Part shown: positions 3,697 to 47,297 of the stretch, piece by piece | How positions within the stretch are numbered: the first letter of the stretch is position 1 | How the letters are laid out: every line of letters starts with the position of its first letter | IMG/VR virus record: IMGVR_UViG_3300032073_000008 | Location: 1-64,000 of that record | From: a virus | Reading direction: 5' to 3' (one strand) | DNA length: 64,000 nucleotides | Notes under the pieces: model-generated | The model's database searches: none | Told to the model about the DNA's origin: nothing | The model's input: the letters and a program-made list of their open reading frames with translations, nothing else | Translations under genes and position numbers: made by a program

Positions 3697-6282
3697 TTAG
3701 TTATCAACTTTTTTACTGGCTCGCCACTGATAACAAGACCAGTATCCAGCTTTTGTTTTATCGGTTTTGTTATCACAATCGTGCCTTGCTCTAAATGACT
3801 TTCTTCGCTCTGGATCATCACGCTTGATCTCCATATTTGGATCACCAAATGTGACTTTAACTACATTACCTTTATCATTCTTAACATACACACCAAATTT
3901 CTTTTTAGATCCTGCTGGAAGTCTGAATGGGTCATTCAGCTTTACTTTGCGACCCTGATACTCTGACTCCTCAACAATCAAATCATCATACATGTCAGTA
4001 CACTCTTGACATGGAGTATCTTTCTTATATTGAGCTACAAGTTTGTTAGTACCTTCCTCGCCTGCACCACCTTCCTCAGTGATAGCATCTTTATACATCT
4101 TAGCAAGAACGCGAGCGGTCACACCATTGTATTGTTTGGCAACCTGAGCAGCATAGTAATCTACACTGTGTTTTAACGAACTTCCTTTTGCTTCTTTCTT
4201 TTTGCGAGAATAAATTTGTTTCAATACTTCTAGTGCAGCTTTGTATTTATTCTTACTGACAGTTCTAGCTTTCAAGCGGTCAATCAATTCAGTTGTTGGA
4301 ACTTCTTTCAACAACTCCTTATCTTCCTTTAATGCAACTTTTACTTGTCGCACCTTTGTTTCCATATCTCGAATTTCAGGTTCTAGATCTTTACGTTGGC
4401 GACCGCGACTCTTTTTAATTAAGTCTTGAAGTTGTGATTCAAAAGAATCGAGCTTACGCTTTAGATCACGCTCAGGCTTCCCTTTGTATGGATTTCTAAG
4501 TGCTTCCTCTAGAGACTCAACAATACCACTACCAACTTGACCAAGTTTTTTTCCATAGATTGCTCTGCCAGTTGCTAGATCAACTAAGTCTTGAGCAGCA
4601 CGCCTTGAATACCCCATTTTACTTTGGATATCAGATACTGCACGCTTTGCACCTCGTTTTTTGATTATGTCTTGAATCATGTCAACATGCTTTTTCTTTA
4701 ATGCAAACTTATCACCGTCTTGTGGAAATACACCCATTGATTCATTAACACTTTCTTTCTTTGGCTTTGGCTTACCTTTATGCTTTGCCCATAAATCAGC
4801 ATCGCCAGTAGTTCTTGTCTTACCGCCAGTAATGAAAGAGTTTACACGAGCATATGCCCATTGCTGTTGGCTTGCTCCTGGACGATGTCCAGTCTTCCAT
4901 GCAGCCATTCCGCGATTGTAAACTTTCTTCAGGATACCAAGAGATATGCCAGACTTCTCAGACTTTTTCTTTAGCGCAGTGGCTGAGTCTTCGGTGATCT
5001 CAAAAGATTCTTCTTGGTTCTTAGCTTTAGTGTCAGCAGTACGAGCACGATCCAACATACGATCATGTTTTTTCTTATCAGAAGCCTTTTCTCTGTCTAT
5101 CTTTTCTTTAGCAGAGTCAACTTCACCCTCACCAAACATATCATGATACTTTTTAGTATGTTTAGAAGTACGAGTCTTTGCACCTGCATCGCCAGCATGC
5201 TTATCTGGATATGCTGATGGATCATCCGAATCTTTCTCAGCACCCTTCTTAAATTGAGCATCACGCTTTGCTTTGGTAGACTTTGATAAACCGCTATGGT
5301 ATTTCTTTGGTTGTGTTCCTTCGCGATCTTTGATATCTTTATCCTGAGCAACCCTCGCTTCAAATAATTGATCAAAGTCTATCTCTTCTTTGACGCCACC
5401 GCGAACTCTCTTCAATCTTTCAATCTCCGCTTTACGAACTTTTGGTAATATTTTCTTGGCTATCTTGGGAACAAGACCAGCTTTCTTTGCGACCAACTTA
5501 TCAATCTGTATCTTGTCTGATGGCGATAGAGTAGCATAACTTTTCCCACGATCACCAGCAACCTTTTTACGAACAATTGCAATTGCTTGTTTTTGAGCAC
5601 GCTTTTGTATAGTCTTAGCATCAGCCATTTTCTTTGCTTTCATCTTCTTAATACGCTGTAACTTCGGTGCTAATCGTTTCATCCTACGACCGATAGCTTT
5701 GCGTTGTGAAATGCTTAGTGGCTTTTTATCTTCATCTAAATCTTCTTTTATTACCGACCTGATAGTATCATAGATATCTTTAGCGTCACGGTCATTTAAT
5801 TTCTTTGGTAATCCAGACTTAAATGTATCAAAGTCTCCTTCAACAGCAGTAGCTCTCAACTTTGATGCGGACATACCCTCAACGCCAGTTGCATCGGGAT
5901 CTCGTGCGCCTGCTGATACGACCTTAATAGTTTTAAAGTCATAGTCTCTTCCGTTATACTTTTGTAATAAACCATTGAACTCAGTAACTCGATCAGAGCC
6001 AACAACCATAACAACCTCATCATACTGCTTATCGAGTTCGTCCATTATCTGGAAGATTGTCTTAGACTTTGATTGTGTTACTGACTTACCGAATGCTTTG
6101 CGTGCGAAACGAATCTTCTCAGCGTAGTTGAGAGGATCTTTCTTATTATTCTGAGTGTGTGACAGGTATACTTTTGCTGGAGCTTTTTCTTTCTTTGCTA
6201 CAGCTTCCACTTTATCAACCAGCTTCTGATGTCCGATTGTTGGTGGGTTCATTCTACCGAATGTGATTACTACTTTTGCCAT
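3697..6282 (-). CDS. Cytidylyltransferase-like (HIGH-motif nucleotidyltransferase) multidomain protein
   Basis: N-terminal TFGRMNPPTIGH, VVGSDRV and MSAS motifs, followed by several basic modules (e.g. GHRPGASQQQWAYARVNSF; C-terminal FRARHDC...YWSC). Confidence 0.75.
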   Translation of the reverse strand: MAKVVITFGRMNPPTIGHQKLVDKVEAVAKKEKAPAKVYLSHTQNNKKDPLNYAEKIRFARKAFGKSVTQSKSKTIFQIMDELDKQYDEVVMVVGSDRVTEFNGLLQKYNGRDYDFKTIKVVSAGARDPDATGVEGMSASKLRATAVEGDFDTFKSGLPKKLNDRDAKDIYDTIRSVIKEDLDEDKKPLSISQRKAIGRRMKRLAPKLQRIKKMKAKKMADAKTIQKRAQKQAIAIVRKKVAGDRGKSYATLSPSDKIQIDKLVAKKAGLVPKIAKKILPKVRKAEIERLKRVRGGVKEEIDFDQLFEARVAQDKDIKDREGTQPKKYHSGLSKSTKAKRDAQFKKGAEKDSDDPSAYPDKHAGDAGAKTRTSKHTKKYHDMFGEGEVDSAKEKIDREKASDKKKHDRMLDRARTADTKAKNQEESFEITEDSATALKKKSEKSGISLGILKKVYNRGMAAWKTGHRPGASQQQWAYARVNSFITGGKTRTTGDADLWAKHKGKPKPKKESVNESMGVFPQDGDKFALKKKHVDMIQDIIKKRGAKRAVSDIQSKMGYSRRAAQDLVDLATGRAIYGKKLGQVGSGIVESLEEALRNPYKGKPERDLKRKLDSFESQLQDLIKKSRGRQRKDLEPEIRDMETKVRQVKVALKEDKELLKEVPTTELIDRLKARTVSKNKYKAALEVLKQIYSRKKKEAKGSSLKHSVDYYAAQVAKQYNGVTARVLAKMYKDAITEEGGAGEEGTNKLVAQYKKDTPCQECTDMYDDLIVEESEYQGRKVKLNDPFRLPAGSKKKFGVYVKNDKGNVVKVTFGDPNMEIKRDDPERRKSFRARHDCDNKTDKTKAGYWSCYQWRASKKVDN

Positions 6283-6371
6283 TTACGTGTTTCCCTTGGG
6301 CTTAACGTGTTAAAATTAGTTGTTGACTTATCTCAAATTAGACGTATAATAGAGGTGTCGTTTTGTAAGTG

Positions 6372-6379
6372 TATTTATA
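6372..6379 (-). promoter_or_regulatory. T4-type late promoter TATAAATA
   Basis: Exact TATAAATA in the intergenic gap upstream of 3697..6282; gp55 is encoded in the window. Confidence 0.75.
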
Positions 6380-6386
6380 AGTTTTG

Positions 6387-7313
6387 TTACTCTAACAACC
6401 CACCTTCTTCTAGTTCATTTCTGAAATATTCAATTGTCTTTTCCATCCCCTCTTCAAGAGTTACTAATTTAGAAGGATCCATATCGACAAGAGCAAGAGT
6501 AGATGTATCTGCCTTTACCACATCACCAACATTCTCACCTGGACGCATAGGAAGATTAACAATCTTTGATTCACTATTAGACATTCGGATAATAGTCTCA
6601 GCAACTTCTTGAACAGTGCTGTTTATTTCTGGACCAACTTCAACAGTCCTATCAAATACAACACCATCTGCTGCTTTCTCTACAGCAGTAACAAGAGCTT
6701 TTGCTACATCACCAACATAAACCATATCAGAAACTTGCGAGCCATCACCATATACTTCCACATCTTGATTTGTTAATGCACGGCACGCAAAAGAAGGTGT
6801 TATCTTTCGTACCTTACCAGAACCAAATGGTGCTACTGCAAGTTGTCTTGGACCATATGCATTCATAGCTCTTACTATATTAACTTTTGTTCCGCGAAAC
6901 CGATTGAACATATCAATAAATCTTTCTATCATTGTTTTTGTAATTGAGTATGTATTATTCATCCAATGATTTCCAACACCGATATATGCACCTGGAAGGT
7001 CATACTGTGCTGCAGCTTCGAGAACATTTAATCCACCAACCAAATTTGATTTAGCAGCAGGTCTTGGATTCTGAATAGTCTCTTGTGTGCCAAGAACAGC
7101 AGCAAGGTGGATCCAACCATCAACATGTGCCATTGCTTCAGTAACAGCAATGTCGTCCATAATATCGCCTGAGAATACTTCAACTTCTGGATCATACTCT
7201 GAATAATGTCTCCTATGATGATCAAATATAACAGGCTTGTGCCCTCTTGATTGAAGTTCTTCTACAACATATCTTCCAATAAAACCCATACCACCAGTAA
7301 CTAAAATTTTCAT
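6387..7313 (-). CDS. NAD-dependent epimerase/dehydratase (extended SDR)
   Basis: TGGMGFIG Rossmann motif, HLAA, YSITK catalytic YxxxK, NAYGP. Confidence 0.9.
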   Translation of the reverse strand: MKILVTGGMGFIGRYVVEELQSRGHKPVIFDHHRRHYSEYDPEVEVFSGDIMDDIAVTEAMAHVDGWIHLAAVLGTQETIQNPRPAAKSNLVGGLNVLEAAAQYDLPGAYIGVGNHWMNNTYSITKTMIERFIDMFNRFRGTKVNIVRAMNAYGPRQLAVAPFGSGKVRKITPSFACRALTNQDVEVYGDGSQVSDMVYVGDVAKALVTAVEKAADGVVFDRTVEVGPEINSTVQEVAETIIRMSNSESKIVNLPMRPGENVGDVVKADTSTLALVDMDPSKLVTLEEGMEKTIEYFRNELEEGGLLE

Positions 7314-8125
7314 GTAAGTTTTCCTTCGTTATAATATTGTTTCCACAAGTTTGTAAAATTTATTCCTGAATATATATATTCATCTGTCCATGGGAGCTTT
7401 TTACCACCACCAATATAATGTAAAATATATGGATCTTTAAGCATGCCCATTTCTTTTGCCATAGCCAACCATGAAACATCTGTATTCATTTCAAACGGTA
7501 ATTGAACAAAGTTTCCTCTTAATATCCAACCCAGATAACTTTGCACCACAAATGCTCCATCTGGCACATCTTTATCTAGTGTAGCATCAATAAACATATC
7601 AGTCAATTGTAATTCCATCCATTTTTTATTATCGAATAGCATTATTCCAGATTGACAAGCTGGTGTTTCGCCTAGACCGAGATCAGTATCATAATCTCTT
7701 CTGAGCATTTGTTTTTCTTTATTCCATGGATTACCATTTAATGACATTGCGACTGGCATGTCGTGCATGTCTACATCCCACAAAAAAGAAAAATCTTTTA
7801 TAGCGATAGTGTCAGCATCCATCCACATAGATCTAGAATATTTTTTATGTGATAAGTTTGGTATCAATATTCGATTATACATTGACGGCATACCGCTATC
7901 AGCTCTTCCATCTCCCCACCCTCTACCGCTTGGGTTACATGGTAATGAAACATTAAAGATAAGTTCTATATCTGGGTGTTCAAGTTGTTTGAATTCTTCT
8001 GGCTCGCCAGTACAATAAACTTGGAAATCAAAATTCCACTCAACTTCTTTTTTTAGACTATTGAAAAGAGCAATGACACCAGATATGTGTGATGGGGTGC
8101 ATCCTGTAACTATATTATTTTTCAT
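7310..8125 (-). CDS. Glycosyltransferase, GT8-like
   Basis: R-I-L-I-P, WMDADT (DxD), SGIMLFD, ILHYIG..KLPW motifs. Confidence 0.8.
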   Translation of the reverse strand: MKNNIVTGCTPSHISGVIALFNSLKKEVEWNFDFQVYCTGEPEEFKQLEHPDIELIFNVSLPCNPSGRGWGDGRADSGMPSMYNRILIPNLSHKKYSRSMWMDADTIAIKDFSFLWDVDMHDMPVAMSLNGNPWNKEKQMLRRDYDTDLGLGETPACQSGIMLFDNKKWMELQLTDMFIDATLDKDVPDGAFVVQSYLGWILRGNFVQLPFEMNTDVSWLAMAKEMGMLKDPYILHYIGGGKKLPWTDEYIYSGINFTNLWKQYYNEGKLT

Positions 8126-8143
8126 CTAGTGGACCTTTGAAGT
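8110..8143. repeat. 34-bp direct repeat, copy 1
   Basis: ctatattatttttcatctagtggacctttgaagt; 33/34 identical to 8733..8766. Confidence 0.9.
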
Positions 8144-8748
8144 ATTTTAATCTTTTTTTGTTGACCAACGAAAGGTTCGTTATAATATCCTTCCATATCC
8201 ATGGGTGCTTCTGTGTATACACAAGCATATAACCCACGCGGTTTGTCACTTGTATTCTCATTTGACGCATGAACAGTAGATCCATTGATTGCTACAATAT
8301 CTCCTGCTTTGGGCAGGAGTGTTTTCCACTTATCATCTTTATCTCTAATAAACAATGCACCATTGTGTCTGGTGAAATCATCTATTGCGATACTAAGATT
8401 TACAGTGTGTATATCATTACCTTTGTTTCTCAATGAGTATTGATTGTCATAATGTGGTCCAAAGCTCATCTTATCATGCGGTAGTTTGTATATCATCTGA
8501 TCATTGAATAGATGGGGTGTGCCCAATAGGTCAGTTGCAATATCCTTCATTATATCAGAAGTGTATATCTCGGTCAAGGGTTGTGAGAACTTCCCTGCAC
8601 ACGATATACCTTTCCATGTAGAATACTTATCACATTCTGTCCGCATATTATGTCCACAATCAGAGAGTATTTCAAGATCTTTTTTAGAAAAGACATTAGG
8701 TATGATTACCCATCCTTCTTTCTTATAGTGATCTATATTATTTTCCAT
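8122..8748 (-). CDS. PhyH-like 2OG-Fe(II) dioxygenase
   Basis: Y..EGWVII start, H-x-D (HYD), distal H (VHAS..N.S..PR), GDIV motif. Confidence 0.85.
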   Translation of the reverse strand: MENNIDHYKKEGWVIIPNVFSKKDLEILSDCGHNMRTECDKYSTWKGISCAGKFSQPLTEIYTSDIMKDIATDLLGTPHLFNDQMIYKLPHDKMSFGPHYDNQYSLRNKGNDIHTVNLSIAIDDFTRHNGALFIRDKDDKWKTLLPKAGDIVAINGSTVHASNENTSDKPRGLYACVYTEAPMDMEGYYNEPFVGQQKKIKILQRSTR

Positions 8749-10753: not shown

Positions 10754-12085
10754 TTAATATATCTTACAGTGGATTGATGAGAAGTCGTTTTTCTTGATAG
10801 CTGAATAATAACAGCTCTTTAGTACATCTGGATCACTTTCTGATAATATTTCTAGATAGTATGTCAGCCAAGCACCAGCTTTTAATTGTACTTCAGATGT
10901 GGGGAATGGTGATACTTTATCAATTACAAACGACTTCTTCAACAATTTAGGAAGTTTTGTGCTCAAGTATTTCATTGGATCATTCATGATTTTAGTCTTG
11001 TCAGACTTTATGTCGAACCCATTTTGAGAAGCGAGTTCAGGGAATAATTGCGCAGACACAGAGCCCAATTGGACATCAGCACCCTTCTGTCTGCCCTCAA
11101 GATAAATGCGGATATCTCCAACCTTTGAGATTGTGCCAGCCTTGTATCCAACACGCAAATTAAATCCACTAATGTTACCTTGAGTTTCGAAAATAAAATT
11201 CTTTTGGAATGGATCAAACAAAACACGCATTGGTGTTAATTCAACATCAGGGATATCAGATGTTGAAACAGTTTCAACTTTAGCAGTTTTGTTTTTAGAT
11301 ATCTTTTTAAGAGATACACCGATAATTTCTTTGCTTTCATACTTATCAGATAACCAAGCATTAAATTCAAGTAATGATGTTATGTCTTTTGTTTGTTTAA
11401 TTATCTGTGCTTTTGTAATCTTCATAACCCAGATGTCAGCAGGATTCCAGTTATCTTTTAAATCCTTTAGACCAAATCGTTTTGCTAGATTAAACAAAAC
11501 ATTAGAATCATTCTTTTCTGAGTCTAAGTATATTTTATGTTTTGGAAGATTACCGAAGTTTTTAGAGAATGCAATATATTGTTGCTCAAAATTATGCATC
11601 CATTCTGGACTGAAATCAAACCCCACTGCTGAAGACACTTGCTTCAGTGTTGGCTTCTTACCTTTAAATGCACCTTCAAAGTATGAGATTGTACCAGCTT
11701 CTTGTTCTGCTGTTGTTGGGTTTGCTACTGTCTGTCCTTTCTTTGGTAGACGACCACTACCACGCATTCCACCTGAAGGAACAAGAGCAATGTTAACAAG
11801 TTTAGATGAAACATATTTTTCACCTTTAGGCATGAAGCCATAACCTGACAAGTCTTTATGTACCGCAAGTTTGGGAATAAGTTTTTTGTCAGTGATCTTT
11901 ATCATCAACTGTGTCTTTGCTTTTTTAAAGTCATACTTTGGTTCGATATATACAACATCATCATCAGCATGCTTTTTGAGACGAGTTATGAATCTTTTCA
12001 ATTCAGGATTCATAGCTGTAGGAAGGTGTTCGTATCCGAGCCACAGTTTTGTAGACTCCACTAGATACTCTCCGAATTTATACAT
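10754..12085 (-). CDS. Probable PD-(D/E)xK-fold nuclease-like internal head protein
   Basis: T..QE, WNPADIW and IGVSLKK motifs; CTS-like N-terminus MYKFGEYLVE; late promoter upstream. Confidence 0.5.
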   Translation of the reverse strand: MYKFGEYLVESTKLWLGYEHLPTAMNPELKRFITRLKKHADDDVVYIEPKYDFKKAKTQLMIKITDKKLIPKLAVHKDLSGYGFMPKGEKYVSSKLVNIALVPSGGMRGSGRLPKKGQTVANPTTAEQEAGTISYFEGAFKGKKPTLKQVSSAVGFDFSPEWMHNFEQQYIAFSKNFGNLPKHKIYLDSEKNDSNVLFNLAKRFGLKDLKDNWNPADIWVMKITKAQIIKQTKDITSLLEFNAWLSDKYESKEIIGVSLKKISKNKTAKVETVSTSDIPDVELTPMRVLFDPFQKNFIFETQGNISGFNLRVGYKAGTISKVGDIRIYLEGRQKGADVQLGSVSAQLFPELASQNGFDIKSDKTKIMNDPMKYLSTKLPKLLKKSFVIDKVSPFPTSEVQLKAGAWLTYYLEILSESDPDVLKSCYYSAIKKNDFSSIHCKIY

Positions 12086-12123
12086 TTGTCAACCTTTGTT
12101 TTGTCAAAAAGAATATTATATGT

Positions 12124-12131
12124 TATTTATA
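12124..12131 (-). promoter_or_regulatory. T4-type late promoter TATAAATA
   Basis: Exact match about 40 nt upstream of the ATG at 12085. Confidence 0.75.
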
Positions 12132-12150
12132 ATCCAAAGGCAATAGAAAA

Positions 12151-12229
12151 TGAGCATTTTAATGACATGCTCAGGTCATAGAGTTATGTGTGTGATGAGA
12201 GAGAGTGAGAGAGAGTTCACACACACAAC
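12151..12229 (-). ncRNA. Candidate structured RNA 3' of gp41: hairpin with CU-repeat loop plus H-type pseudoknot
   Basis: 13-bp stem GUUGUGUGUGUGA/UCACACACAUAAC closes loop ACUCUCUCUCACUCUCUCUCA; then AUGAC-C-UGAGCAU-GUCAU-UAAA-AUGCUCA, two interleaved stems, followed by UUUU. Confidence 0.55.
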
Positions 12230-12230
12230 A

Positions 12231-13658
12231 TTATACTTTCAATCCTCCGAAGTTTTTACGACCCATCTTTTTGGTTGCCCACTTCATTTGATCATCTTCT
12301 TTAGCCCTAGACCCAAACTCTGAGTTATCAAATACTGGTCCAGTGTCACCACTATCGGAAAGACCCTCTTGAGCAGTTTGCTCAACATCATACAACCTCA
12401 TCTTAGCACGATCAATACCAACCATAAACCTTTTATGTGTACTTGGATCACCATAACGATTTTTTAACTGTTTCACCATTATCTGCCCAAGCTCATCTAA
12501 CTCTTCTGTAACAATCAATGCAGCCATAAAATCAGCAGTTGCTGGTAGACCAAACGATTCAGAAGTATCAGTCAACTCAATATCACTGCTACCATATCCA
12601 CTACGAGTTGTTTGTGTAGCTGATACAATAGGAACATTTTGTTCAACAGCCAAACCACGCATCTCCTCAGCAATGGCTTTGATCAGAGTATATGAGTTAA
12701 TGTTTGCACCAGCACGAACTCTTGAAGAACTGCATATGTTTAGATAATCAACATAGATGATATCAGGTGTAAATGATTTCTTTAATTTCATCTCATTCAG
12801 TAGATGACGAAAATGACCAACACCAGCAGATGCAGTTGGATATTCTTTTATAATTAATTTGCCAGATGTCTTACCTTTAACTCTTTCTATTTTCTTTTCA
12901 TACATACTTTTAGATAATGCTTTTAAATTATCTAGTGTGACATTAAGTAAGTTGGCATCAATACGCTCAGCAATCTTTTCTTCAGCCATCTCCATAGTGA
13001 TGTATAAAACATTCTTGCCATCCATTAGATTAGCCGAAGCCATATGACACATAGCCAAAGACTTACCAGCACCAGTACCTGCCATGAGTATGTTCAAAGA
13101 TTTACGAGGCAACCCACCTTGTGTGATCTTGTTCATATAATCAAGGTCAAAGGGAACACGCTCTTCTTTGCGGTGATAAAACTCAAACCGTTCTTCAGCA
13201 TCTTCAACAAAATCATGACCAATGTTAGGATCAAATGAAACGCTTAGAGCATCAGACAACAACTCAGGTATTGCTCCTTTGTCTTGCTTCTGCCCTTTAG
13301 TTTGATCGAGTATACTGATGCTTTCCATTATGGCATTATATACAGCTTTTTCTTGACAGAACTTCTCAGTTGTATTAATTAACCACTCAGGATCTTCAGC
13401 TTGCTCAACAGATAGTGATGAAATATATTCACCACATTCTTTGAATTCACTATCTGAAAGATTCGTCTGTTGATCAAGTTCAATAACAAGTGCCTCTTTA
13501 GTTGGCACAGTATTAAACTTGTTTATGAAATGATCTATTTGTTCATAGACCGCACGCTCAACACGATCACTGAAGTATTCAGATTTTAGATAGGGGAGTG
13601 TTCTCCTAGCATAATCCTCATCATTCAGTAGGTGTCTCAGTATCAGTTGTTCCTGCAT
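12231..13658 (-). CDS. gp41: Replicative DNA helicase (DnaB-like)
   Basis: AGTGAGKS Walker A, YITMEMAEE, VDYLNI, SATQTTR, SESFGLPATAD, KNRY. Confidence 0.95.
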   Translation of the reverse strand: MQEQLILRHLLNDEDYARRTLPYLKSEYFSDRVERAVYEQIDHFINKFNTVPTKEALVIELDQQTNLSDSEFKECGEYISSLSVEQAEDPEWLINTTEKFCQEKAVYNAIMESISILDQTKGQKQDKGAIPELLSDALSVSFDPNIGHDFVEDAEERFEFYHRKEERVPFDLDYMNKITQGGLPRKSLNILMAGTGAGKSLAMCHMASANLMDGKNVLYITMEMAEEKIAERIDANLLNVTLDNLKALSKSMYEKKIERVKGKTSGKLIIKEYPTASAGVGHFRHLLNEMKLKKSFTPDIIYVDYLNICSSSRVRAGANINSYTLIKAIAEEMRGLAVEQNVPIVSATQTTRSGYGSSDIELTDTSESFGLPATADFMAALIVTEELDELGQIMVKQLKNRYGDPSTHKRFMVGIDRAKMRLYDVEQTAQEGLSDSGDTGPVFDNSEFGSRAKEDDQMKWATKKMGRKNFGGLKV

Positions 13659-13935
13659 TATCTACGCTCTCTCTCAATTGTTGTTCAATAATATCGACAA
13701 GTATGTCTCCCATTATACTAATTGCTTCTTCAGAAGTCAAGTCAACATCTGTGGGGTTATCAATAGTGATTGTATTGTAGTCAAGTACAGCTTGACCATC
13801 TTCTTCTCTTTCATGAAAAGATACAGTGTCATACTGATAAGTGAGTCCCTCACAACTACCTTCCAGCACCTTAACAGCCCAATGATCTGCATGGAATCCT
13901 TCTGGCGATTCTACTAAATCATATTTAACTGACAT
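13621..13935 (-). CDS. Small acidic protein, positional equivalent of T4 gp40
   Basis: 104 aa between uvsX and gp41, matching the T4 order uvsX-40-41; sequence identity not verified. Confidence 0.45.
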   Translation of the reverse strand: MSVKYDLVESPEGFHADHWAVKVLEGSCEGLTYQYDTVSFHEREEDGQAVLDYNTITIDNPTDVDLTSEEAISIMGDILVDIIEQQLRESVDNAGTTDTETPTE

Positions 13936-15315: not shown

Positions 15316-16410
15316 TTATGCAAAAAAACTTTCTAACGAACTTTTCTTTTCAGACTGCCATCCAACCGACTTCAGAATATACTTTAGTGGTTCAAGGAAT
15401 GCTTTCTGAAACTGCAATTCGCGGTCTATGTAGGAGTTTAACTCAAATTCTTTGGGCAGTGTTGTCATAACACTGATGATATTTTGCCTTGTTGGATTAG
15501 GCAATTTCAAATAACAAAACTTAATCTTCTCACCATCTTTGATGGACTCATATTTTTTGGTGAGCTTCATATCACGAAGCATATGATTATATACCAACCC
15601 ACCACGAACATGAATTGGTGTTCCTTTAGGAATTGTCAGCTCATCACCCAATACTGTATACTTATTCAAATCAGAAATTGAACGAGGAAAGGCAATGTCC
15701 TCGAAGCTGAAAGTATCAAACTTTTCTCTGAATTCAGAAATATAACTCTGCACTTCATCTTCACCTTTTGTCATAATAATCTTGATGGCTTCTTTCAAAG
15801 CATCACGACAGACTGCTGGTGTTGATGACTTAACAGTCTCAATACCCATCATCTTCAATTGCGGTTCAGCATAACGCACACCCTCATTATCATACACATT
15901 CATCATGTAGCGTTTCTTAGCAGTCCAGATAGCTTTATCTGCAATCGCTTCACGCTTCATAAACATCTTTTGGGAATATGCGTTTGTTAGGTGTGCCAGC
16001 TCTTCATAACTTTTATCAATAAAAGGTTCCAACTTCTCAGCTGCAACTTTGTCCAAGAAATTGACGACTTTGACAGCATCACTTCCCTCTTCAAAGCATT
16101 TGCGTACAAGTTTGTCGAGATTGACATAAATTGAATCTGTGTCCGACGCAATAACATAATCAACTTCGTCTGTATCCAAGATCTTGTTGAGATATTCATT
16201 TACTCTCCTTTCAATCCATCTAATTGCTAACTGACCAGACAATGTAATTGCCTCTGCCTTTCGTACATCAAAGAATCGAAAGTATTTATTACCGACTGCA
16301 CCATAAGCTGAGTTGAGCTGAACCTTTTTTGCAAGTTGAAGATTCTTGTACTTGCTTATATCTTTAACAAGTTGCTTCTTCCGTTCAAGAAGTTCAGCTC
16401 TTTCAGTCAT
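15316..16410 (-). CDS. gp43B: Family B DNA polymerase, C-terminal subunit (split gp43)
   Basis: KVQLNSAYG (motif B), SDTDS (motif C), KKRY, GIETVKSSTP, C-terminal clamp-binding SLESFF. Confidence 0.93.
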   Translation of the reverse strand: MTERAELLERKKQLVKDISKYKNLQLAKKVQLNSAYGAVGNKYFRFFDVRKAEAITLSGQLAIRWIERRVNEYLNKILDTDEVDYVIASDTDSIYVNLDKLVRKCFEEGSDAVKVVNFLDKVAAEKLEPFIDKSYEELAHLTNAYSQKMFMKREAIADKAIWTAKKRYMMNVYDNEGVRYAEPQLKMMGIETVKSSTPAVCRDALKEAIKIIMTKGEDEVQSYISEFREKFDTFSFEDIAFPRSISDLNKYTVLGDELTIPKGTPIHVRGGLVYNHMLRDMKLTKKYESIKDGEKIKFCYLKLPNPTRQNIISVMTTLPKEFELNSYIDRELQFQKAFLEPLKYILKSVGWQSEKKSSLESFFA

Positions 16411-16682
16411 TATACTACAATCCCGCTTGTTGCTTGAATATATGCTTTCTCAACATCTTCATTGGTTTCAGTCATGAATACTGTTCCACCAGTATAGAAA
16501 GAAACTGAGTCAACATTTGCTTTACCTGTCGCACAAACGCCATGAGCAAATCCCATACCCTGCTCGCCATGGACAAGCATGCGTGGATCTTTGATAACAA
16601 TACTAGCATCTGTTTCTTCTTCAAACTTACCAACAAACTCTCCAGTGAGAGTTACTAATGAAACTACAGTTCCTTTCTTCAT
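16410..16682 (-). CDS. Small Sm/Hfq-like beta-barrel protein inserted between the gp43 halves
   Basis: 90 aa (VVSLVTLTGEFVGKF...IVIKDPRML...Y..ATSGIV); ATGA overlap with gp43A and TAATG overlap with gp43B. Fold is inferred. Confidence 0.7.
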   Translation of the reverse strand: MKKGTVVSLVTLTGEFVGKFEEETDASIVIKDPRMLVHGEQGMGFAHGVCATGKANVDSVSFYTGGTVFMTETNEDVEKAYIQATSGIVV

Positions 16683-18133: not shown

Positions 18134-18568
18134 TTAGTCTTCACCAACCTCTTCAATTTCAAGTTCACCGTGCATTACAACATTTGATTCTTCAGAATCA
18201 TATCCTTCCTCTTCAAGAAAGAAAAAACTATCTTCATCATATCCTTCTTGAAGAGCTTCCTTCTCATTATCGCTGAATTCACCAACAAAGTCAATGTCAA
18301 CTGAAATGCCATCCCATGTAGATTGAAACTCATGCTCTTCAAAATCATATGGCTCAAACTCATCGTCATCTTCAGCATACATTGCAGCTTCAAGAGCATC
18401 GACTTCATCTTTATCTTGTGGCGTAACATTAACAGTCCCATTTCGCCATAGTGTACTTATAATTATTTGTTGTTTTTGGTCATCACAATGAGTAAATGTC
18501 TCAGACTCTACGAAACATTTTTTGTATGCTGGCGAAACAGCATATGTTTTACCGATTTTTATTTCCAT
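18134..18568 (-). CDS. Acidic hypothetical protein (paralogue of 25962..26387)
   Basis: 144 aa with a GGAGAG RBS; shared N-terminal pattern. Confidence 0.65.
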   Translation of the reverse strand: MEIKIGKTYAVSPAYKKCFVESETFTHCDDQKQQIIISTLWRNGTVNVTPQDKDEVDALEAAMYAEDDDEFEPYDFEEHEFQSTWDGISVDIDFVGEFSDNEKEALQEGYDEDSFFFLEEEGYDSEESNVVMHGELEIEEVGED

Positions 18569-18569
18569 C

Positions 18570-19157
18570 TCACTCTCCTATAATCATATTATAAATGTCA
18601 TTCCAATTATTGGCTCTTGTTCCATTATACTCTTTATTGTATCTATGGTCAACCAAAATACTTTTTAGACCAAACCTTGTTCCTAACTCAGCATTGGCAG
18701 GCTTATCTTCAATCCACCAACACTCACTGTCTCTGTACTTTAACAAAGCATCATCTTTATCAGCACCACACTCAAGGCATGTCAAAACTTCAAATACACC
18801 TCTACCAAAAACGCTGTCCAGATTTCTCTGTCTCAGAGCAATAGCTTTATCATCATCCGACATAGAAGTGATACAGTGGAATACATAACCATGCTCTTCA
18901 TGTAACTTGCGAACATACTTCACCGCATCTCTTAATGGTGGAATATCTTCCATCCATGCACTTTCATTGAAGTGACGAACCAATGGCTTTGTCTCTTCAC
19001 GACTAACACCATATCGCTTGTGTACCTTATAAAGATCTCTATATCCATCAACAGTTTTGAAACCTTTTTTATCCATCCAAGAACTGAAGGAATGCTCCCA
19101 ATCAAGAAGCACTCCATCACAGTCAGTTAAAATTACTTTATCAAAAGTAGCATACAT
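18570..19157 (-). CDS. HAD-superfamily 5'(3')-deoxyribonucleotidase-like phosphatase
   Basis: LTDCDGVLLDW (DxDGV), ITS, WIEDK, YN. Confidence 0.8.
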   Translation of the reverse strand: MYATFDKVILTDCDGVLLDWEHSFSSWMDKKGFKTVDGYRDLYKVHKRYGVSREETKPLVRHFNESAWMEDIPPLRDAVKYVRKLHEEHGYVFHCITSMSDDDKAIALRQRNLDSVFGRGVFEVLTCLECGADKDDALLKYRDSECWWIEDKPANAELGTRFGLKSILVDHRYNKEYNGTRANNWNDIYNMIIGE

Positions 19158-20884: not shown

Positions 20885-21097
20885 TTAGACCTGACTCGCT
20901 TCAGTACGGTATGCGAGATCAAGAGTCCTGACATTTTCCTCGTGCATCTGGAGCAACTCAGCATGGGTGTATATATCATACCCAGTGAACAAGATTTCCT
21001 TCCCCTCGCACGCTCCAGAGGTGTCTCCGAAGTCTTTAGTGGTTAAGGCATCAACATCAAGGCTTAAAAGATTAGCAAGCTCAGTGGTGGTCAACAT
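20885..21097 (-). CDS. Small early hypothetical protein
   Basis: 70 aa, GAGGAGAGA RBS, own promoter. Confidence 0.65.
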   Translation of the reverse strand: MLTTTELANLLSLDVDALTTKDFGDTSGACEGKEILFTGYDIYTHAELLQMHEENVRTLDLAYRTEASQV

Positions 21098-21127
21098 AGG
21101 TCTCTCCTCTCATCAATTTATAAGAGA

Positions 21128-21156
21128 ATTCTACCCTATATTTGATCTCTGGACAA
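21128..21156 (-). promoter_or_regulatory. Putative early promoter (TTGTCY-N17-TAGAAT class)
   Basis: TTGTCC-N17-TAGAAT with an A-tract upstream; same class at 32743 and 35101. Confidence 0.7.
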
Positions 21157-24588: not shown

Positions 24589-24978
24589 TTATTGTTTTTT
24601 ACCAATGTTGTATTTTGTTTCAAGATTCCAGTCAGCTTTGTCCTTGTACGGCAAAACTTTAATTTGGTTCAAAGGAGCAATTAGCTCTTTTGTTTTATCA
24701 TCATCCACCAACTTTATCAATCCCCACTCAGCCAACAAGTTCGCAATAGTATTGCGTCTTGCAACATCTTCATCACCAAAATTACTAGGCTTACCATCAA
24801 GGGCAAACAACTCTTTAAAGTGGACAATGTAATACTTACCTTGCTTATGCAAGATATGGCACGATTGATATAGGGTTTTGTTTTTATGAGATGCAACACC
24901 GATTCGTGTTAGTGTTTCTCGAATCTTTAGAAAATCATCATCATTCTTTAGTATAACTTCCACTAGACTATCCAGCAT
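24589..24978 (-). CDS. regA: Translational repressor RegA
   Basis: DDFLKIRETLTRIGVAS, LYQSCHILHKQGKYYIVHFKELFALDG. Confidence 0.95.
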   Translation of the reverse strand: MLDSLVEVILKNDDDFLKIRETLTRIGVASHKNKTLYQSCHILHKQGKYYIVHFKELFALDGKPSNFGDEDVARRNTIANLLAEWGLIKLVDDDKTKELIAPLNQIKVLPYKDKADWNLETKYNIGKKQ

Positions 24979-32705: not shown

Positions 32706-32742
32706 ATAGGTCTCTCTCATTTATTAATCAATTTCAAATACA

Positions 32743-32771
32743 ATTCTAGCACAAAAACAACATAAAGACAA
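32743..32771 (-). promoter_or_regulatory. Putative early promoter
   Basis: TTGTCT-N17-TAGAAT. Confidence 0.7.
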
Positions 32772-35071: not shown

Positions 35072-35100
35072 ATGATAGTCTCTCAACAAAATAGACGCCC

Positions 35101-35129
35101 ATTCTACCATATCAGGAGACCTGAGACAA
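35101..35129 (-). promoter_or_regulatory. Putative early promoter
   Basis: TTGTCT-N17-TAGAAT. Confidence 0.7.
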
Positions 35130-36441: not shown

Positions 36442-37826
36442 GAAAAGAATCCTTCTAATGATGACTTTGTCACAACAGCTTCTGGATGATATTGCGATAA
36501 CATTCCTTCACCGCCTTTCTGTTTCAGATAATCATACCACTCATCTTCAGCCCACATATTTGGCGAAACACCATTCCAAAATTCTTTCCACAACTTGTGG
36601 TTCTTATTGAGTCTGCGATCATCAACATATTGTCTACGCAGTTTTTCATATTCCCAAGAACCAACCTCAAGCATTTTTTCACGGAAGTAGCATACAAGAG
36701 ATATGCGTTCCATTTCTTCAATAGTGGTTCCAGCAGGTGGTTTCAGTTCAGTGTTACCATGAATGCCACCATGATTATTGATCAACAAAAGATCTCCTGG
36801 ACGGATATTGATACCTACACGAAACTCTGGAAGGACAAGATAACCACCTTCCCAATTCTTTTCTTTAGCAACAACAGTAAGGTTTGAAAATCCTTCATTC
36901 AAATCACCAGCATCTCTGTGAGCTGCAGTTCTGAAGTTTTTATTTACAGTAATCGTAGTGAACGGTGTATCTTCACCAGCAACACGAAAGCGTGGATCTA
37001 GCTTGCTTGCAGCTTCGTTTTGAATACCATAACGAATAGGTAAATGCTCCTTAAATTTGTCAGCTAATTGACGCATGAAAGGATAGCACTTCTCATAGAC
37101 AGGATAGTTGTTCTCTGTATACGCAGTTGCTCGACCGTATGGAATACGAGGATATCGATCAAAGAATCCAGCAATACCTGACAACACCATGTTAGCATAT
37201 GTTGTCTCAGAGATATAGTTCTTTTGAGTTGCCTTTGCGTCTTTCTGAGCATCCTCTGCTGACATACCTTGCCATTCAGCAACCTTGTCATTGAAGAATG
37301 ATTCGTAATTATAACCACTATCAGTGATCTTAGATCTGATCCAAACTATACCACGAGATTCACCTGCTGTAATTGAAGCATGTTTTGCTCTGATTCTTTC
37401 TACTGGATCAGTGTCATCTTCAAACAGAGAAACTTCACGCTCAGCAAAGTGCTTCATAATATCAAGCTGTTCTTCAGTTACCCAATCACGACCGCCTTGC
37501 TTTGCTCCTTTTGGACCAGCAGCAAGACCACGATTTTGTGTAGGTAATGCAGCACCTAATAATCCTTCATAAGCACCGTGCTGTTGTTCTTCAGTAAAAA
37601 CATTTTTGCGAAACTTAAAGATAATGTTATCTTCATTATTCTCACCACCAAACCCAGCAGGAGCATAGAAGTCAGTATCTTCTTCACAAATAAAATCCCA
37701 GTCAGTATCTTCCATATATTGACCGAGTTTGTGTTCACAATCATCCCAAAACTTGGCTGTAATGATTCTGACATTGTTTACATTATCTACCTTAACATCA
37801 TACTTTTCGTTTATCACACCAATCAT
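36438..37826 (-). CDS. TET/JBP-family 2OG-Fe(II) 5-methylpyrimidine dioxygenase
   Basis: FTTITVNKNFRTAAHRDAGD (HxD), GGYLVLPE, PGDLLL, HGNT, RISLVCYFRE; C-terminal SSLEGFF resembles a clamp-binding motif. Confidence 0.82.
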   Translation of the reverse strand: MIGVINEKYDVKVDNVNNVRIITAKFWDDCEHKLGQYMEDTDWDFICEEDTDFYAPAGFGGENNEDNIIFKFRKNVFTEEQQHGAYEGLLGAALPTQNRGLAAGPKGAKQGGRDWVTEEQLDIMKHFAEREVSLFEDDTDPVERIRAKHASITAGESRGIVWIRSKITDSGYNYESFFNDKVAEWQGMSAEDAQKDAKATQKNYISETTYANMVLSGIAGFFDRYPRIPYGRATAYTENNYPVYEKCYPFMRQLADKFKEHLPIRYGIQNEAASKLDPRFRVAGEDTPFTTITVNKNFRTAAHRDAGDLNEGFSNLTVVAKEKNWEGGYLVLPEFRVGINIRPGDLLLINNHGGIHGNTELKPPAGTTIEEMERISLVCYFREKMLEVGSWEYEKLRRQYVDDRRLNKNHKLWKEFWNGVSPNMWAEDEWYDYLKQKGGEGMLSQYHPEAVVTKSSLEGFFS

Positions 37827-38833
37827 ATCATAAATCTCTCTATTCCAACATTACTCATTTCATTTGTAAAAGTATTCATATGGTCTATCTTCCCAGTGTC
37901 TAGGAATATCTCCATTTTACTCTTACTTATCGAATTAGTCAAGTATTCATTTCTCAATGTCTCTTTTCTAGCATCCCACATGGGTGTCCAGTCAATACCA
38001 TCCCATCCATCTCTCTCCACTTGCTTTATTTCTTCAGCTTGTCTGTCAATATAATAACCAAGATAACGACCTCTACTCTTGCGAAACAGTTTCTTAAATG
38101 AACACAGTGCTGTTTCCATAGCAAAAAAGTCTGCTTTGCTCTCAGCATTTGGGTGTGTGCGTTTTACATCTTCGAGTATTTTCTTTCCTTCTCCTTCCAT
38201 CCATTGTATTTGATCATCTTCGAGCTTTTTATTCACCCAATCATCTTTACCTAAAGCATAACAAAGACCATTCCGATGAGATCGAGATCCAGAATAGTCA
38301 TGTAACCATAGACTTGGAACATCAACATTGAGACCAGCACACTGCTTTAGAGTTTGGATATAAAACCAAGATGTGTATCTTCCGAACTTGTGTAATGAAG
38401 TTACAGAATCCCAAACTTTTTGGAAGTTTTGATATTTGTCGCCACGACATAACTCTTCAAATGCATCTTCTTGTTTCCTACCACCAACCCATTCTTTATA
38501 GGAAACAAATTGATCAGCAAGATGACCTTTATTCCATTTTGTATCTGTTTGATATCTGAGACGCGAATAGTTTTCATTGTTCCATTCACGCAAACGATCA
38601 ACACCAACCAACTCCATATCAGGGAACTCATTCCAGATAAGGTATGCTGTTGGGAAGTTGTATGTTGTTCCATATAACCAACAGAGCCATAACTTCTGTT
38701 CTGTGTTATATTCAAACCGATCAAAGAAGTAATTTGTGAGATACAATGCTGAGTCACAATCTTCTATCTCAAGACTCCACTTAAACCAGTTGACAAATGC
38801 TTGTCTACGATGTTCACTTAATCTATAATCCAC
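37823..38833 (-). CDS. Amino acid:DNA transferase (aGPT-PPlase2/AADT-like, DNA-glycosylase HhH fold)
   Basis: WLCWLYG.TY, FGRY.SWFY.Q.L, GS.S.RNGL, ETALCSFKK, RYLGYY.DR. Confidence 0.7.
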   Translation of the reverse strand: MDYRLSEHRRQAFVNWFKWSLEIEDCDSALYLTNYFFDRFEYNTEQKLWLCWLYGTTYNFPTAYLIWNEFPDMELVGVDRLREWNNENYSRLRYQTDTKWNKGHLADQFVSYKEWVGGRKQEDAFEELCRGDKYQNFQKVWDSVTSLHKFGRYTSWFYIQTLKQCAGLNVDVPSLWLHDYSGSRSHRNGLCYALGKDDWVNKKLEDDQIQWMEGEGKKILEDVKRTHPNAESKADFFAMETALCSFKKLFRKSRGRYLGYYIDRQAEEIKQVERDGWDGIDWTPMWDARKETLRNEYLTNSISKSKMEIFLDTGKIDHMNTFTNEMSNVGIERFMI

Positions 38834-39489
38834 TAAAAGAATTCCTCTAGAGTGTTTGGCTCATCACCTATTAATTTATCACGCATCCAAAACTCTCCTA
38901 CAGAAGAAATAGCTTCTTCTACAGTAGCAGTCTTTTTCTTACCAAAGCCATGAGACTCAAGCGATTCATCAAACAATTGTTTGATCACCTTTGGATCTTT
39001 AGGCAAAGCCAGATGCGGGACATTAATTGCTGTTGCCCTAAATGTGCACTGCTCCCTGATAGAAGGAAACAGTGGTTGATCAGAACGCAACGACCCAGTT
39101 GGATCAACAGCCCAAAATATCAAACCATTTCTTTTATGCCAAGTTATAGAAGATGGAGTGCAAGATATTTTCAAACGACTCATGCCATTATTAAAAGCAT
39201 CACTCATTACTCTTTCCCAGATAGCTGTAGCATATCCCTTTCCTTCATGACCTTGCCTAGTTACAATCTCATATAGATTAATATATCTCGATCTTTGACT
39301 ATAAGTAGCAAACACAAATGCAACCATTTCGCCATCAACCTCTAAGGCAAATGGCTTATTATCTTTTTCATAGTTTTTAAAACGAAACCACAAACTGTGT
39401 GATGAATTGAGGAACTTTGTATTTTTTCCTTCAGGGGAGTTCTCAATGACTTTCTCAATCATCTCTTGTGAACATCTTACTATGCGCAT
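38833..39489 (-). CDS. GNAT-family acetyltransferase
   Basis: LYEIVTRQGHEGKGYA acetyl-CoA-binding motif, W...G; C-terminal TLEEFF. Confidence 0.72.
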   Translation of the reverse strand: MRIVRCSQEMIEKVIENSPEGKNTKFLNSSHSLWFRFKNYEKDNKPFALEVDGEMVAFVFATYSQRSRYINLYEIVTRQGHEGKGYATAIWERVMSDAFNNGMSRLKISCTPSSITWHKRNGLIFWAVDPTGSLRSDQPLFPSIREQCTFRATAINVPHLALPKDPKVIKQLFDESLESHGFGKKKTATVEEAISSVGEFWMRDKLIGDEPNTLEEFF

Positions 39490-40172
39490 TGTAAGTCTCT
39501 CACTAATGCACCACCACGCAATGGAGAAGATTTCTCTAGCTTTCCATTGTATGTGTATGTTACATACATGTCTGTTCTTTGTTGATTTGTAATTGCACTT
39601 CTTTTTAGAATATCTTTTGTTGATGCGAATACAATACCATTATTTCGCTCACTATACCATAGTGGTCTTGCTTCATTTCTAAATCCAGTTAGACTCTTAT
39701 CTTTTTTGATACGACAGACAGCCATACTTGATGGGTAAAAATCATTCAATGGATCATTACCAGCCTCATATGATTTCAATATCAATTCACTGTCATTAGC
39801 TGTTTCAGTGTTATATTTCCACTTCTCTTTATCTTCTTGTGATATAACACCATTGTGAACAATACTTTGATCACCATTAGAGAAAGGTTGATTGTATCGA
39901 AGATCAGATGTTGAATAGCGAATATGACCAATAAGGTAGATACCACCATCCTCATTTATCATACTCTGAATTGGATATTTTGCGAGGAACTCATCACAAG
40001 GGATGCCCTCTTTTATCGTATATATCTTAGAATCTTTGACATATGATACACCAGTCGCATGTTTCCCTCTTATCATAGATTCGCGGAAAATACGCTCTAC
40101 CAGTTTAACATTCTCAATACTACCACGACTGACAGAGGATCTCTCTAACCAAACGCCTATCACACCACACAT
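39480..40172 (-). CDS. Class II (Ntn) glutamine amidotransferase domain protein
   Basis: MCGVIG (Cys2 nucleophile), RG.HATG, GHIRYST, NQP, VHNG, DSE, RPL, FAS. Confidence 0.88.
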   Translation of the reverse strand: MCGVIGVWLERSSVSRGSIENVKLVERIFRESMIRGKHATGVSYVKDSKIYTIKEGIPCDEFLAKYPIQSMINEDGGIYLIGHIRYSTSDLRYNQPFSNGDQSIVHNGVISQEDKEKWKYNTETANDSELILKSYEAGNDPLNDFYPSSMAVCRIKKDKSLTGFRNEARPLWYSERNNGIVFASTKDILKRSAITNQQRTDMYVTYTYNGKLEKSSPLRGGALVRDLQCA

Positions 40173-46498: not shown

Positions 46499-46527
46499 AT
46501 TATATCGTATTACTGAATTGTAGTCAA
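46499..46527 (-). promoter_or_regulatory. Sigma70-type promoter for uvsY-uvsW
   Basis: TTGACT-N17-TATAAT. Confidence 0.72.
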
Positions 46528-47031
46528 CTCATATTTCCTATAATTAAAACTGACTTGGGCTGAAAGATAATCAACATCAGAGTTCTCTATACTAAACTCT
46601 AATGATGAAAGATTAGTTGGGTACATATCAACAAATTTAACTTCAATATTTGGTGTCATGGCTGCAGTCGTGATAATCATTGAACCATCAGAATATATAT
46701 TACCAGTGTTGTCTTTAGTTCTTCCAAGAGCCTTTGATTGATCAAAACTGTCTGGATAACCAAGACCAATCAACCAATCGTATATTTCAGAAAAGTTTTT
46801 CATATCTTCATCAACGCGGAATGTTAATTGCAACGCACCAAAGTCTAGCTTGTCACCTGGAATTGGAAGTTTCGCGAATGGATTTTGAACTTCAGTTGGT
46901 GCACTAAGAGAGATATCAGGTATCGCTGCAGCAGTACAAAAATAATTTACATGTGGCAATCTTTGTACGCTGAATCTAAACCCTATTGGAGAAAGAAAAC
47001 TTTTATTTGTTGGTTGTGATGGAACAGTCAT
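46510..47031 (-). CDS. gp3: Tail tube terminator/completion protein
   Basis: FLSP.GF.F, PGDKL.F..L...F.VDEDM.N, F...YP..LS.L.F; position between gp23 and uvsY. Confidence 0.85.
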   Translation of the reverse strand: MTVPSQPTNKSFLSPIGFRFSVQRLPHVNYFCTAAAIPDISLSAPTEVQNPFAKLPIPGDKLDFGALQLTFRVDEDMKNFSEIYDWLIGLGYPDSFDQSKALGRTKDNTGNIYSDGSMIITTAAMTPNIEVKFVDMYPTNLSSLEFSIENSDVDYLSAQVSFNYRKYELTTIQ

Positions 47032-47241: not shown

Positions 47242-47297
47242 GATGCGTTCCTTCGACACAATTGTCTACTTCCGTTCACTTATAGTGAATGAACGAT
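47242..47297 (-). ncRNA. Glutamine riboswitch (glnA RNA motif)
   Basis: AUCGUUC-A-UUCAC(UAUAA)GUGAA-CGGAAGUA-GACA(AUUG)UGUC-GAAG-GAACGCAU: P1/P2/P3 three-way junction with GGAAGUA/GAA E-loop, matching the glnA consensus as recalled. Confidence 0.85.

Follow-up and report, generated by a model that had tools for sequence, protein, structure and literature searches.

The window analysed here is the first 64 kb (64,000 nucleotides) of a 110,317-bp virus contig; its G+C content is 36.9% and nearly all of its genes lie on the minus strand. The gp41 helicase and the major capsid protein share only about 58-65% identity with the best-listed matches in cultured phages (cyanophages, pelagiphages and the OM43 phage Melnitz), which, judged by sequence, makes the source an uncultured marine T4-like myovirus, and a megablast search of the locus against the phage collection returned no near relative. 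The gene for the gp41-type replicative helicase (12231..13658, minus strand; 58-65% identical to the best-listed gp41 records of cyanophages, Melnitz and marine viruses) ends in a TAA stop codon that directly abuts a CU-loop hairpin (12183..12229, minus strand). It is the sense (minus-strand) RNA that forms the stem, and the original prediction of a 13-bp stem and a 21-nt loop right after the gp41 stop describes the structure exactly: the 5' arm (12217-12229), the loop ACUCUCUCUCACUCUCUCUCA (12196-12216) and the 3' arm (12183-12195) all lie on the minus strand, one of the 13 base pairs is G.U, and the loop consists of two copies of ACUCUCUCUC plus an A. Folded as a single sequence, the hairpin reaches a z-score of -1.19 against dinucleotide shuffles, an unimpressive value because the stem is itself dinucleotide-repeat-like. 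The case that it is more than a chance structure thus rests on comparison, namely on covarying stems with a conserved loop in relatives and on the enrichment of long loop complements in leaders.

The window copy does not have the makings of an intrinsic terminator: its stem is GU/AC-repeat-like, its loop is 21 nt long, and it is followed by UCUAUGACC with no U run. A terminator scan of the window reported neither the hairpin nor the element that follows it, and no canonical terminator stands behind the hairpin, so that the hairpin would have to be processed out to become a discrete small RNA, or else act as part of the gp41 message. A candidate internal promoter in the 3' end of gp41 was rejected, being a lone TATAAT that is not conserved. 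Compared with rut sites, which are about 70-80 nt of C-rich, G-poor and unstructured RNA behind a stop codon, the hairpin holds 21 G-free nucleotides in a loop, and elsewhere the element is followed by intrinsic terminators. Four public RNA-type runs, compared as contigs only with positions 11600-13900, gave a few short pieces and none over 12139-12741, which says nothing either way. The Rfam 15 gathering scan of the window found no match on the hairpin; at E<=10 the interval 12040-12300 gave three chance-level matches, none of them on the hairpin, and the C4 antisense RNA model did not match either. The single gathering-level match in the window is a glutamine riboswitch aptamer (RF01739, 59.6 bits; 47242-47297, minus strand), located between the ORF 46510-47031 and the major capsid gene (47424-48791).

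On the 3' side of the hairpin, an element made of AUGACCUGAGCAUGUCAUUAAAAUGCUCA and a U-rich tract (12142..12179, minus strand; 18 aligned copies) is conserved in the gp41-linked clade only. Since GACCUGAG served as the search anchor, its invariance is by construction and only the conservation of the flanking YAWGUC...AAAYUGCUY is informative. Outside the anchor, the 18 copies differ solely by wobble-compatible changes and offer no truly compensatory pair, which leaves the fold unproven; the element may form a small pseudoknot or act as a weak terminator. Behind it lies the promoter region of the next gene (12115..12143, minus strand), in which a T4-type late box TATAAATA (12124-12131) sits in the spacer of a sigma70-like promoter, TTGCCT-N17-TATAAT. 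This nested arrangement is conserved in relatives, which suggests that the downstream 443-aa gene is read by both early and late transcription.

The other end of the gp41 message carries the complement of the hairpin loop. The gp41 leader UGAGAGAGAG (13667..13676, minus strand), 8 nt before the AUG, is a 10-nt perfect complement of either half of the loop at 12196-12216 (predicted duplex of -19.5 kcal/mol), and the leader keeps UGAGAGAGA in 13/13 distinct relatives, where the complement to the loop is 9-10 nt long. Transcription of gp41 is expected from a sigma70-like promoter, TTGACT-N17-TATAAT (13712..13740, minus strand; 11/12 consensus matches). Both the promoter and the GA-repeat leader are held within a 104-aa ORF of no known family (13621-13935, minus strand), which overlaps the gp41 start by 38 nt; the leader thus lies inside the coding end of this ORF and is under an added coding constraint.

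The complementary leaders listed in the original prediction all recur in our analysis, at gp41 (13667-13676), at 18568-18577, at cobS, in the 21107-21115 region and at 35079-35085, all on the minus strand. The ORF 18134-18568 has the leader GGAGAGUGAG directly before its AUG (18566..18578), a complement of the loop centre CUCACUCUC with a predicted duplex of -21.5 kcal/mol, and the leader is kept in the orthologues of two gp41-linked genomes (G001 and G003); the match first quoted for it is GAGAGUGAGA (18568-18577). The cobS gene combines an early promoter, TTGTCT-N17-TAGAAT (32743-32771), with the leader UGAGAGAGA (32711-32719), and a GA-repeat leader is kept in the cobS orthologues of G001-G004 and of a second clade. 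A 746-aa gene, formerly called a VWA-peptidase, has an early promoter at 35101-35129 and the leader UGAGAGA at 35079-35085; the leader of its clade-2 orthologue is UUGAGAGUGAGAG, an 11-nt complement of the loop centre. The small ORF 20885-21097 likewise has an early promoter (21128-21156), and its leader UGAUGAGAGGAGAGA (21101-21115) contains the match UGAUGAGAG. We add the leader AGUGAGAGA (39496..39504, minus strand) of the ORF 38833-39489, with a 9-nt complement. In the leaders of gp41, cobS, the 746-aa gene and the genes at 18568 and 37826, the motif is retained among orthologues while the flanks diverge. In the second clade, where the hairpin stands at the end of the cobS operon, the cobS leader matches the loop over 12-14 nt (L200 and L157). 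A transcript bearing the hairpin thus starts with the hairpin's complement in two independent contexts, gp41 and cobS.

Copies of the hairpin were collected by a protein-guided search for gp41 relatives in IMG/VR and by pattern scans. They constitute an RNA family with about 30 distinct copies in IMG/VR contigs of marine T4-like phages and one in the cultured OM43 phage Melnitz. Eighteen distinct copies, including that of the window, sit right after the gp41 stop, the IMG/VR gp41 relatives at 81-86% identity bearing the hairpin at the same position, and further copies are found at other places. The stem sequences are wholly different from copy to copy and always pair (e.g. GUGUGUGA/UCACACAC, GUGCGCGA/UCGCGCAC, GUCGAGUG/CACUCGAC and AUAGGUGC/GCACCUAU). 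The loop core CUCUCUCACUCUCUC is invariant and the number of flanking CU units varies, giving loops of about 18-27 nt. A covariance model was built from four copies and then used to align 24-27 matches, so that the alignments are fitted to the model; despite this, the margin of pairing over shuffles is overwhelming. All eight modelled stem pairs (8/8) show double-sided changes among the 24-27 aligned copies, standard pairs fill 100% of cells (column shuffles: 54-57%; sliding the partners: 22-42%), and 79-86 compensatory cells are observed where 23-25 are expected. RNAalifold predicts the same helix from the alignment. The covariation of the gp41 3' region in related phages, proposed earlier as a check, is thus found, and the combination of an invariant loop core with a freely changing, covarying stem is that of a seed displayed on a scaffold, as in base-pairing small RNAs with C/U-rich loops.

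The hairpin at 12183..12229 is the best match of both covariance models (R1, 59.7 bits; R2, 57.1 bits). Among the cultured phages and relatives scanned with the broader model R2, Melnitz and the source contig match, and the motif was not found in the pelagiphages HTVC008M and Mosig, nine cyanophages, phage DLP6 or G005, a 98%-complete IMG/VR relative. Weak covariance-model matches in the cyanophages P-TIM68, S-8S56 and S-PRM1 were rejected on inspection and vanish with the broader model, and many matches to (CT)n microsatellites were likewise rejected as family members. A recurrent element in other IMG/VR viruses (L155, L162, L168, L169, L174, L183 and L234) shares the 15-mer (UUCUCUCUCACUCUCUC followed by CACGC); it has no flanking stem and is unrelated.

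In the extended stems read on the gene-sense strand, G.U pairs outnumber A.C mismatches by 14 to 2, which points to an RNA structure on that strand rather than to a DNA cruciform or an antisense RNA. This bears on the idea that the locus acts as DNA, as a cruciform and H-DNA-prone homopyrimidine mirror repeat used in replication, recombination or late-promoter activation, or that it is simply a low-complexity accident. The loop is indeed a near-perfect mirror repeat (CUCUCUC-A-CUCUCUC), it has inverted-repeat flanks and it lies close to a late promoter. However, beyond the tolerance of G.U on the sense strand only, the hairpin is always oriented with the sense strand of the flanking genes, the L002/L093 subclade has lost part of the mirror symmetry, and the Melnitz copy is bracketed by a promoter and a terminator. 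An accident is excluded by conservation across about 30 divergent copies, and we regard this explanation as a whole as highly improbable.

To evaluate the leaders, we took positions -22 to -1 of genes predicted with a simple purpose-written gene caller, and used 2,000 permutations of each loop as the null. Perfect loop complements of at least 9 nt occur in 5/114, 6/147, 3/66 and 5/63 leaders of the four gp41-linked genomes G000-G003 (p = 0.0005-0.009 against permuted loops). In the source contig (G000), permuted loops average 0.46 such leaders (p=0.0025) and shuffled leaders 0.10, compared with the five observed. None of the 185 leaders of G005, which has no hairpin, carries such a complement, and the leader enrichment in G004 taken alone is not significant. 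Among matches of 6-7 nt, the real loop has no advantage over any CU-rich permutation, so that only the long matches are specific and part of the signal reflects a generic anti-Shine-Dalgarno likeness. (GA)4 leaders precede 22/748 genes in nine hairpin-bearing genomes versus 0/713 in four complete or near-complete genomes without it, and the generic loop core has complements of 8 nt or more at 36/748 versus 3/713, although the hairpin-bearing genomes are related and these co-occurrences do not count as independent events. HTVC008M, which lacks the hairpin, has a few AGAGAGG sites, and GA leaders could be a habit of the lineage.

Defining early-promoter genes as those within 110 nt downstream of a sigma70-like promoter, we found GA-type leaders at 25/64 early-promoter genes of the hairpin-bearing genomes versus 45/684 other genes (p = 7e-12), at 1/30 early-promoter genes in genomes without the hairpin, and at 2/72 genes behind late promoters. 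The proposal that loop-complementary 8-10-mers would be enriched in ribosome-binding windows thus holds, specifically for those proximal to early promoters. The accompanying remark that late genes mostly use plain AGGAG agrees with the finding of GA-repeat leaders at 0/14 late-promoter genes. Predicted duplexes of -14 kcal/mol or lower involve 7.0% of the initiation regions and 1.8% of the coding windows in G000, as against 1.6% and 1.1% in G005; 41 coding windows also pair at this threshold. When the leaders of each genome were tested against its own and foreign loops, by exact matches and by duplex energies, no diagonal emerged, because the loops are too alike, and co-evolution of loop and leaders is therefore not demonstrated. 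Two hints of it, in G004 (loops that begin with CC, GAGAGG leaders) and in Melnitz (a CUUUCUC loop, GAGAAAG leaders), were too weak to be claimed. Complementary sites at initiation regions are thus both enriched and conserved, in genomes that are related and whose loops show no own-versus-foreign specificity. Taken together with the covarying stems, these data confirm that the hairpin and the leader complementarity are real, far beyond chance.

The hairpin is a portable module. Each bearing genome has exactly one copy, in at least three different contexts. In the gp41-linked context the gp41 stop is followed by the hairpin, the conserved AUGACCUGAGCAUGUC...AUGCUCA element and then the TATAAATA late promoter. 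In the cobS-linked clade the hairpin follows the cobS-ORF160 operon, again with a late promoter behind it; there the stem is GC-rich (12-17 bp) and is followed by a U run, so that these copies are intrinsic terminators. In this clade (L148, L157, L163, L182, L200 and L225) the late promoter lies about 10-30 nt past the hairpin and is directly followed by (A)GAGAGAGA, or by AGAGUGGAGAGA in L163. The GA tract is unique to the post-hairpin late promoter, the other late promoters of the same loci being without it, and read-through transcripts could thus fold the loop against the GA tract in cis. A stretch of 5.4 kb or 2 kb separates gp41 from the hairpin downstream of it in G004 and G008, where the terminator is a separate one. 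In G004 (the contig of L006) this stretch includes a cluster of small early genes (4300-8300), most of which have sigma70-like promoters and AGAGAGG-type leaders; GAGAGG leaders are found at 7/65 genes in G004 versus 2/390 in G000-G003.

A further arrangement is found in Melnitz-1 (a Methylophilales phage; MZ577095.1), whose copy at 37301-37341 has a 15-bp stem and the loop ACCUCUCUCUCGACUUUCUCUCUCA. In Melnitz and its IMG/VR relatives the hairpin is part of a free-standing unit composed of a consensus promoter, TTGAC(T/A)-N17-TAT(G/T)AT, the hairpin and a strong terminator, with compensatory changes in the stem. A hypothetical CDS, Melnitz1EXVC043M_65 (L256; MZ577095.1 37295-37474), is annotated across the hairpin and through the strong terminator. 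A 2-nt CT indel within this CDS among the relatives and the compensatory stem changes argue against coding, and Melnitz1EXVC043M_65 is probably a misannotated small-RNA gene. The signals expected of a discrete transcript thus differ between copies: that of the window has neither a promoter nor a canonical terminator of its own, whereas that of the Melnitz lineage is bracketed by both. The label '3'-UTR-derived', given to the small RNA in the original prediction, accordingly names just one of the ways in which the family is packaged: the hairpin follows the gp41 stop in the window and is elsewhere an operon terminator or a free-standing gene.

These contexts also bear on a purely cis-acting function at the 3' end, in which the hairpin would protect early messages from 3' exonucleases and/or stop early transcription short of the late region, either intrinsically or by letting Rho enter, and in which the CU loop would be retained for nothing else. 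Such a role would account for the position of the hairpin, which invariably closes an early unit and in most cases shortly precedes a TATAAATA late promoter, and the cobS-clade copies have the stem and U run of intrinsic terminators. However, neither protection nor termination needs an invariant loop of 19-27 nt, and large loops weaken terminators; the window copy lacks a U run behind its stem; and no mRNA ends in the hairpin of the Melnitz-type phages, which has a promoter of its own and is followed by a strong terminator that is separate from it. We therefore consider a purely cis-acting element improbable as an account of the family.

The reading that we favour, with somewhat more confidence than doubt, is that the hairpin is a base-pairing regulatory RNA whose loop would mask the GA-repeat tracts at the ribosome-binding sites of early-class genes and of its own transcript. 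The (CU)n-CA-(CU)n loop, left unpaired at the tip of the covarying stem, would pair with (U)GAGAGAGA, GAGAGUGAG or AGAGAGG tracts that are predicted to be, or to overlap, the Shine-Dalgarno regions of genes just behind sigma70-type early promoters, gp41 included. Pairing at the ribosome-binding site would most likely lower translation and/or mark the mRNA for cleavage, so that the stable hairpin RNA, as it builds up, could exert a feedback on gp41 and turn down the early genes collectively. The RNA of the window would correspond to the 3' end of the gp41 mRNA and work in cis or, once processed, in trans; other phages have the same module as an operon terminator or as a free-standing small-RNA gene. 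The sequences show the structure with its conservation, strand and portability, as well as the complementarity and its statistical association with the hairpin; we infer the transcription and processing into an active RNA, the actual pairing and its repressive sense; repression is read from the position of the complement over the Shine-Dalgarno region, and the pairing could instead activate. The suggested shut-down of early genes and/or autoregulation of gp41 fits these data, including the gp41 leader complement kept in 13/13 relatives, and the original interpretation as a whole is partly supported.

A different reading of the same loop is that it binds a protein. The G-free YC-repeat loop might be a high-affinity site that titrates or recruits a host or phage protein with a preference for pyrimidine-rich single strands, such as Rho, ribosomal protein S1, a cold-shock-type protein or a phage factor, the GA leaders then being an unrelated trait of the lineage. 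Protein-recognition hairpins, too, combine an invariant loop with a freely covarying stem, the primary sites of Rho bind YC dinucleotides, the free-standing gene of Melnitz indicates that the RNA product matters without telling what it binds, and no diagonal between own and foreign loops emerged. Nevertheless, this leaves unexplained the perfect complements of 9-14 nt at early-gene ribosome-binding sites, which occur within the same transcript in two independent contexts, and the near-absence of GA leaders from relatives without the hairpin. A search for a binding partner among regA (present), regB (undetected) and a 90-aa ORF without a Pfam match gave no candidate; regA has no known affinity for CU repeats, and the idea that the 90-aa ORF (16410-16682) encodes an Sm/Hfq-like protein was dropped, as it has no Pfam support. 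We think a protein decoy rather unlikely, though it is to be taken more seriously than either the cis-acting or the DNA-level explanation.

Two extensions of the base-pairing reading go further. In the first, one small RNA would be the master off-switch of the early class in one lineage of abundant T4-like phages of the ocean, a portable counterpart of RegB and RegA in which the (CU)n/(GA)n repeats tune repression gene by gene; we put this forward tentatively, as an idea that has the odds against it. The second, more speculative, is that the mirror-repeat loop clamps the GA tract as a pyrimidine-purine-pyrimidine triple helix, and it is weakened by the L002/L093 subclade, in which the 3' half of the loop is shortened.

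In T4, the nuclease RegB and the repressor protein RegA silence early messages post-transcriptionally via their ribosome-binding sites, and the late genes have local cis hairpins that sequester their ribosome-binding sites in early read-through transcripts. The base-pairing reading follows the same logic as RegB and RegA, early-class messages being silenced through their ribosome-binding sites, with an RNA loop as the proposed effector. The contig encodes a clear homologue of RegA, the translational repressor of T4 (PF01818, E 1e-46; 24601-24966, within 24589-24978, minus strand). The regB family gave no match in the contig, G001, G005 or Melnitz, nor in the control genomes, so that this search cannot show absence. 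The presence of regA with regB undetected is compatible with an RNA taking part of the early shut-off role and does not show it.

Among known RNAs, the c4 antisense RNA of phages P1 and P7, attributed to work by Citron and Schuster in 1990, is reportedly made from the transcription unit of its target, pairs by exposed loops with the ribosome-binding region and is said to control one antirepressor operon of a temperate phage. Unlike c4, the present hairpin occurs in lytic T4-like marine phages, has a repeat as its seed and a putative multi-gene early regulon, and does not match the Rfam C4 model. The loop of SprX, grouped here with the C/U-rich-loop small RNAs that mask Shine-Dalgarno sequences, is likewise said to cover a ribosome-binding site. 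SprX, a phage-borne small RNA of Staphylococcus aureus (PMC4005690), has host genes as targets; its sequence and host are unrelated, and the best complements in our case lie in the phage's own early leaders.

In the icaR mRNA of S. aureus, a pyrimidine-rich motif (UCCCCUG) of a long 3' UTR complements the message's own Shine-Dalgarno region, and RNase III cleavage and a block of translation have been demonstrated (PMC3868564). Like icaR, the gp41 message (10 nt) and the second-clade cobS operon (12-14 nt) are self-complementary between 3' end and leader; unlike icaR, the phage motif is displayed in a portable hairpin, occurs in free-standing genes too and is complementary to several further leaders. 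In Helicobacter pylori, the C/U-rich loop of the terminator hairpin of the RepG small RNA pairs with a purine simple-sequence repeat in mRNA leaders, whose length differs among strains and thereby tunes regulation (PMC8295292). Similarly, (CU)n loops of about 18-27 nt here face (GA)3-5 leader repeats of variable length. RepG, however, is bacterial, acts on a homopolymeric G-repeat in one operon (PMC8295292) and has no sequence or Rfam relation to the hairpin, whose putative targets are many early-gene ribosome-binding sites. The hairpin family would thus be nearest, by mechanism, to the RNAs that mask Shine-Dalgarno sequences with C/U-rich loops, its predicted peculiarities being a phage-wide class of early-leader targets, the pairing of repeat against repeat and its portability.

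We found no description of the hairpin RNA in the literature, the Melnitz genome paper included. Little is known of regulatory RNAs in lytic phages, and our searches brought up no account of one in the T4-like myoviruses, which dominate marine viromes. If true, the proposed mechanism would show how phages without RegB time their early genes, add a repeat-against-repeat design to those known and account for an odd class of ribosome-binding sites that lack GG. The family is conserved, easily recognised and present in a cultured phage-host pair (Melnitz on the OM43 strain H5P1), so that the prediction is directly testable. The analysis also amends an existing annotation, as the Melnitz copy of the hairpin is at present filed as a hypothetical protein.
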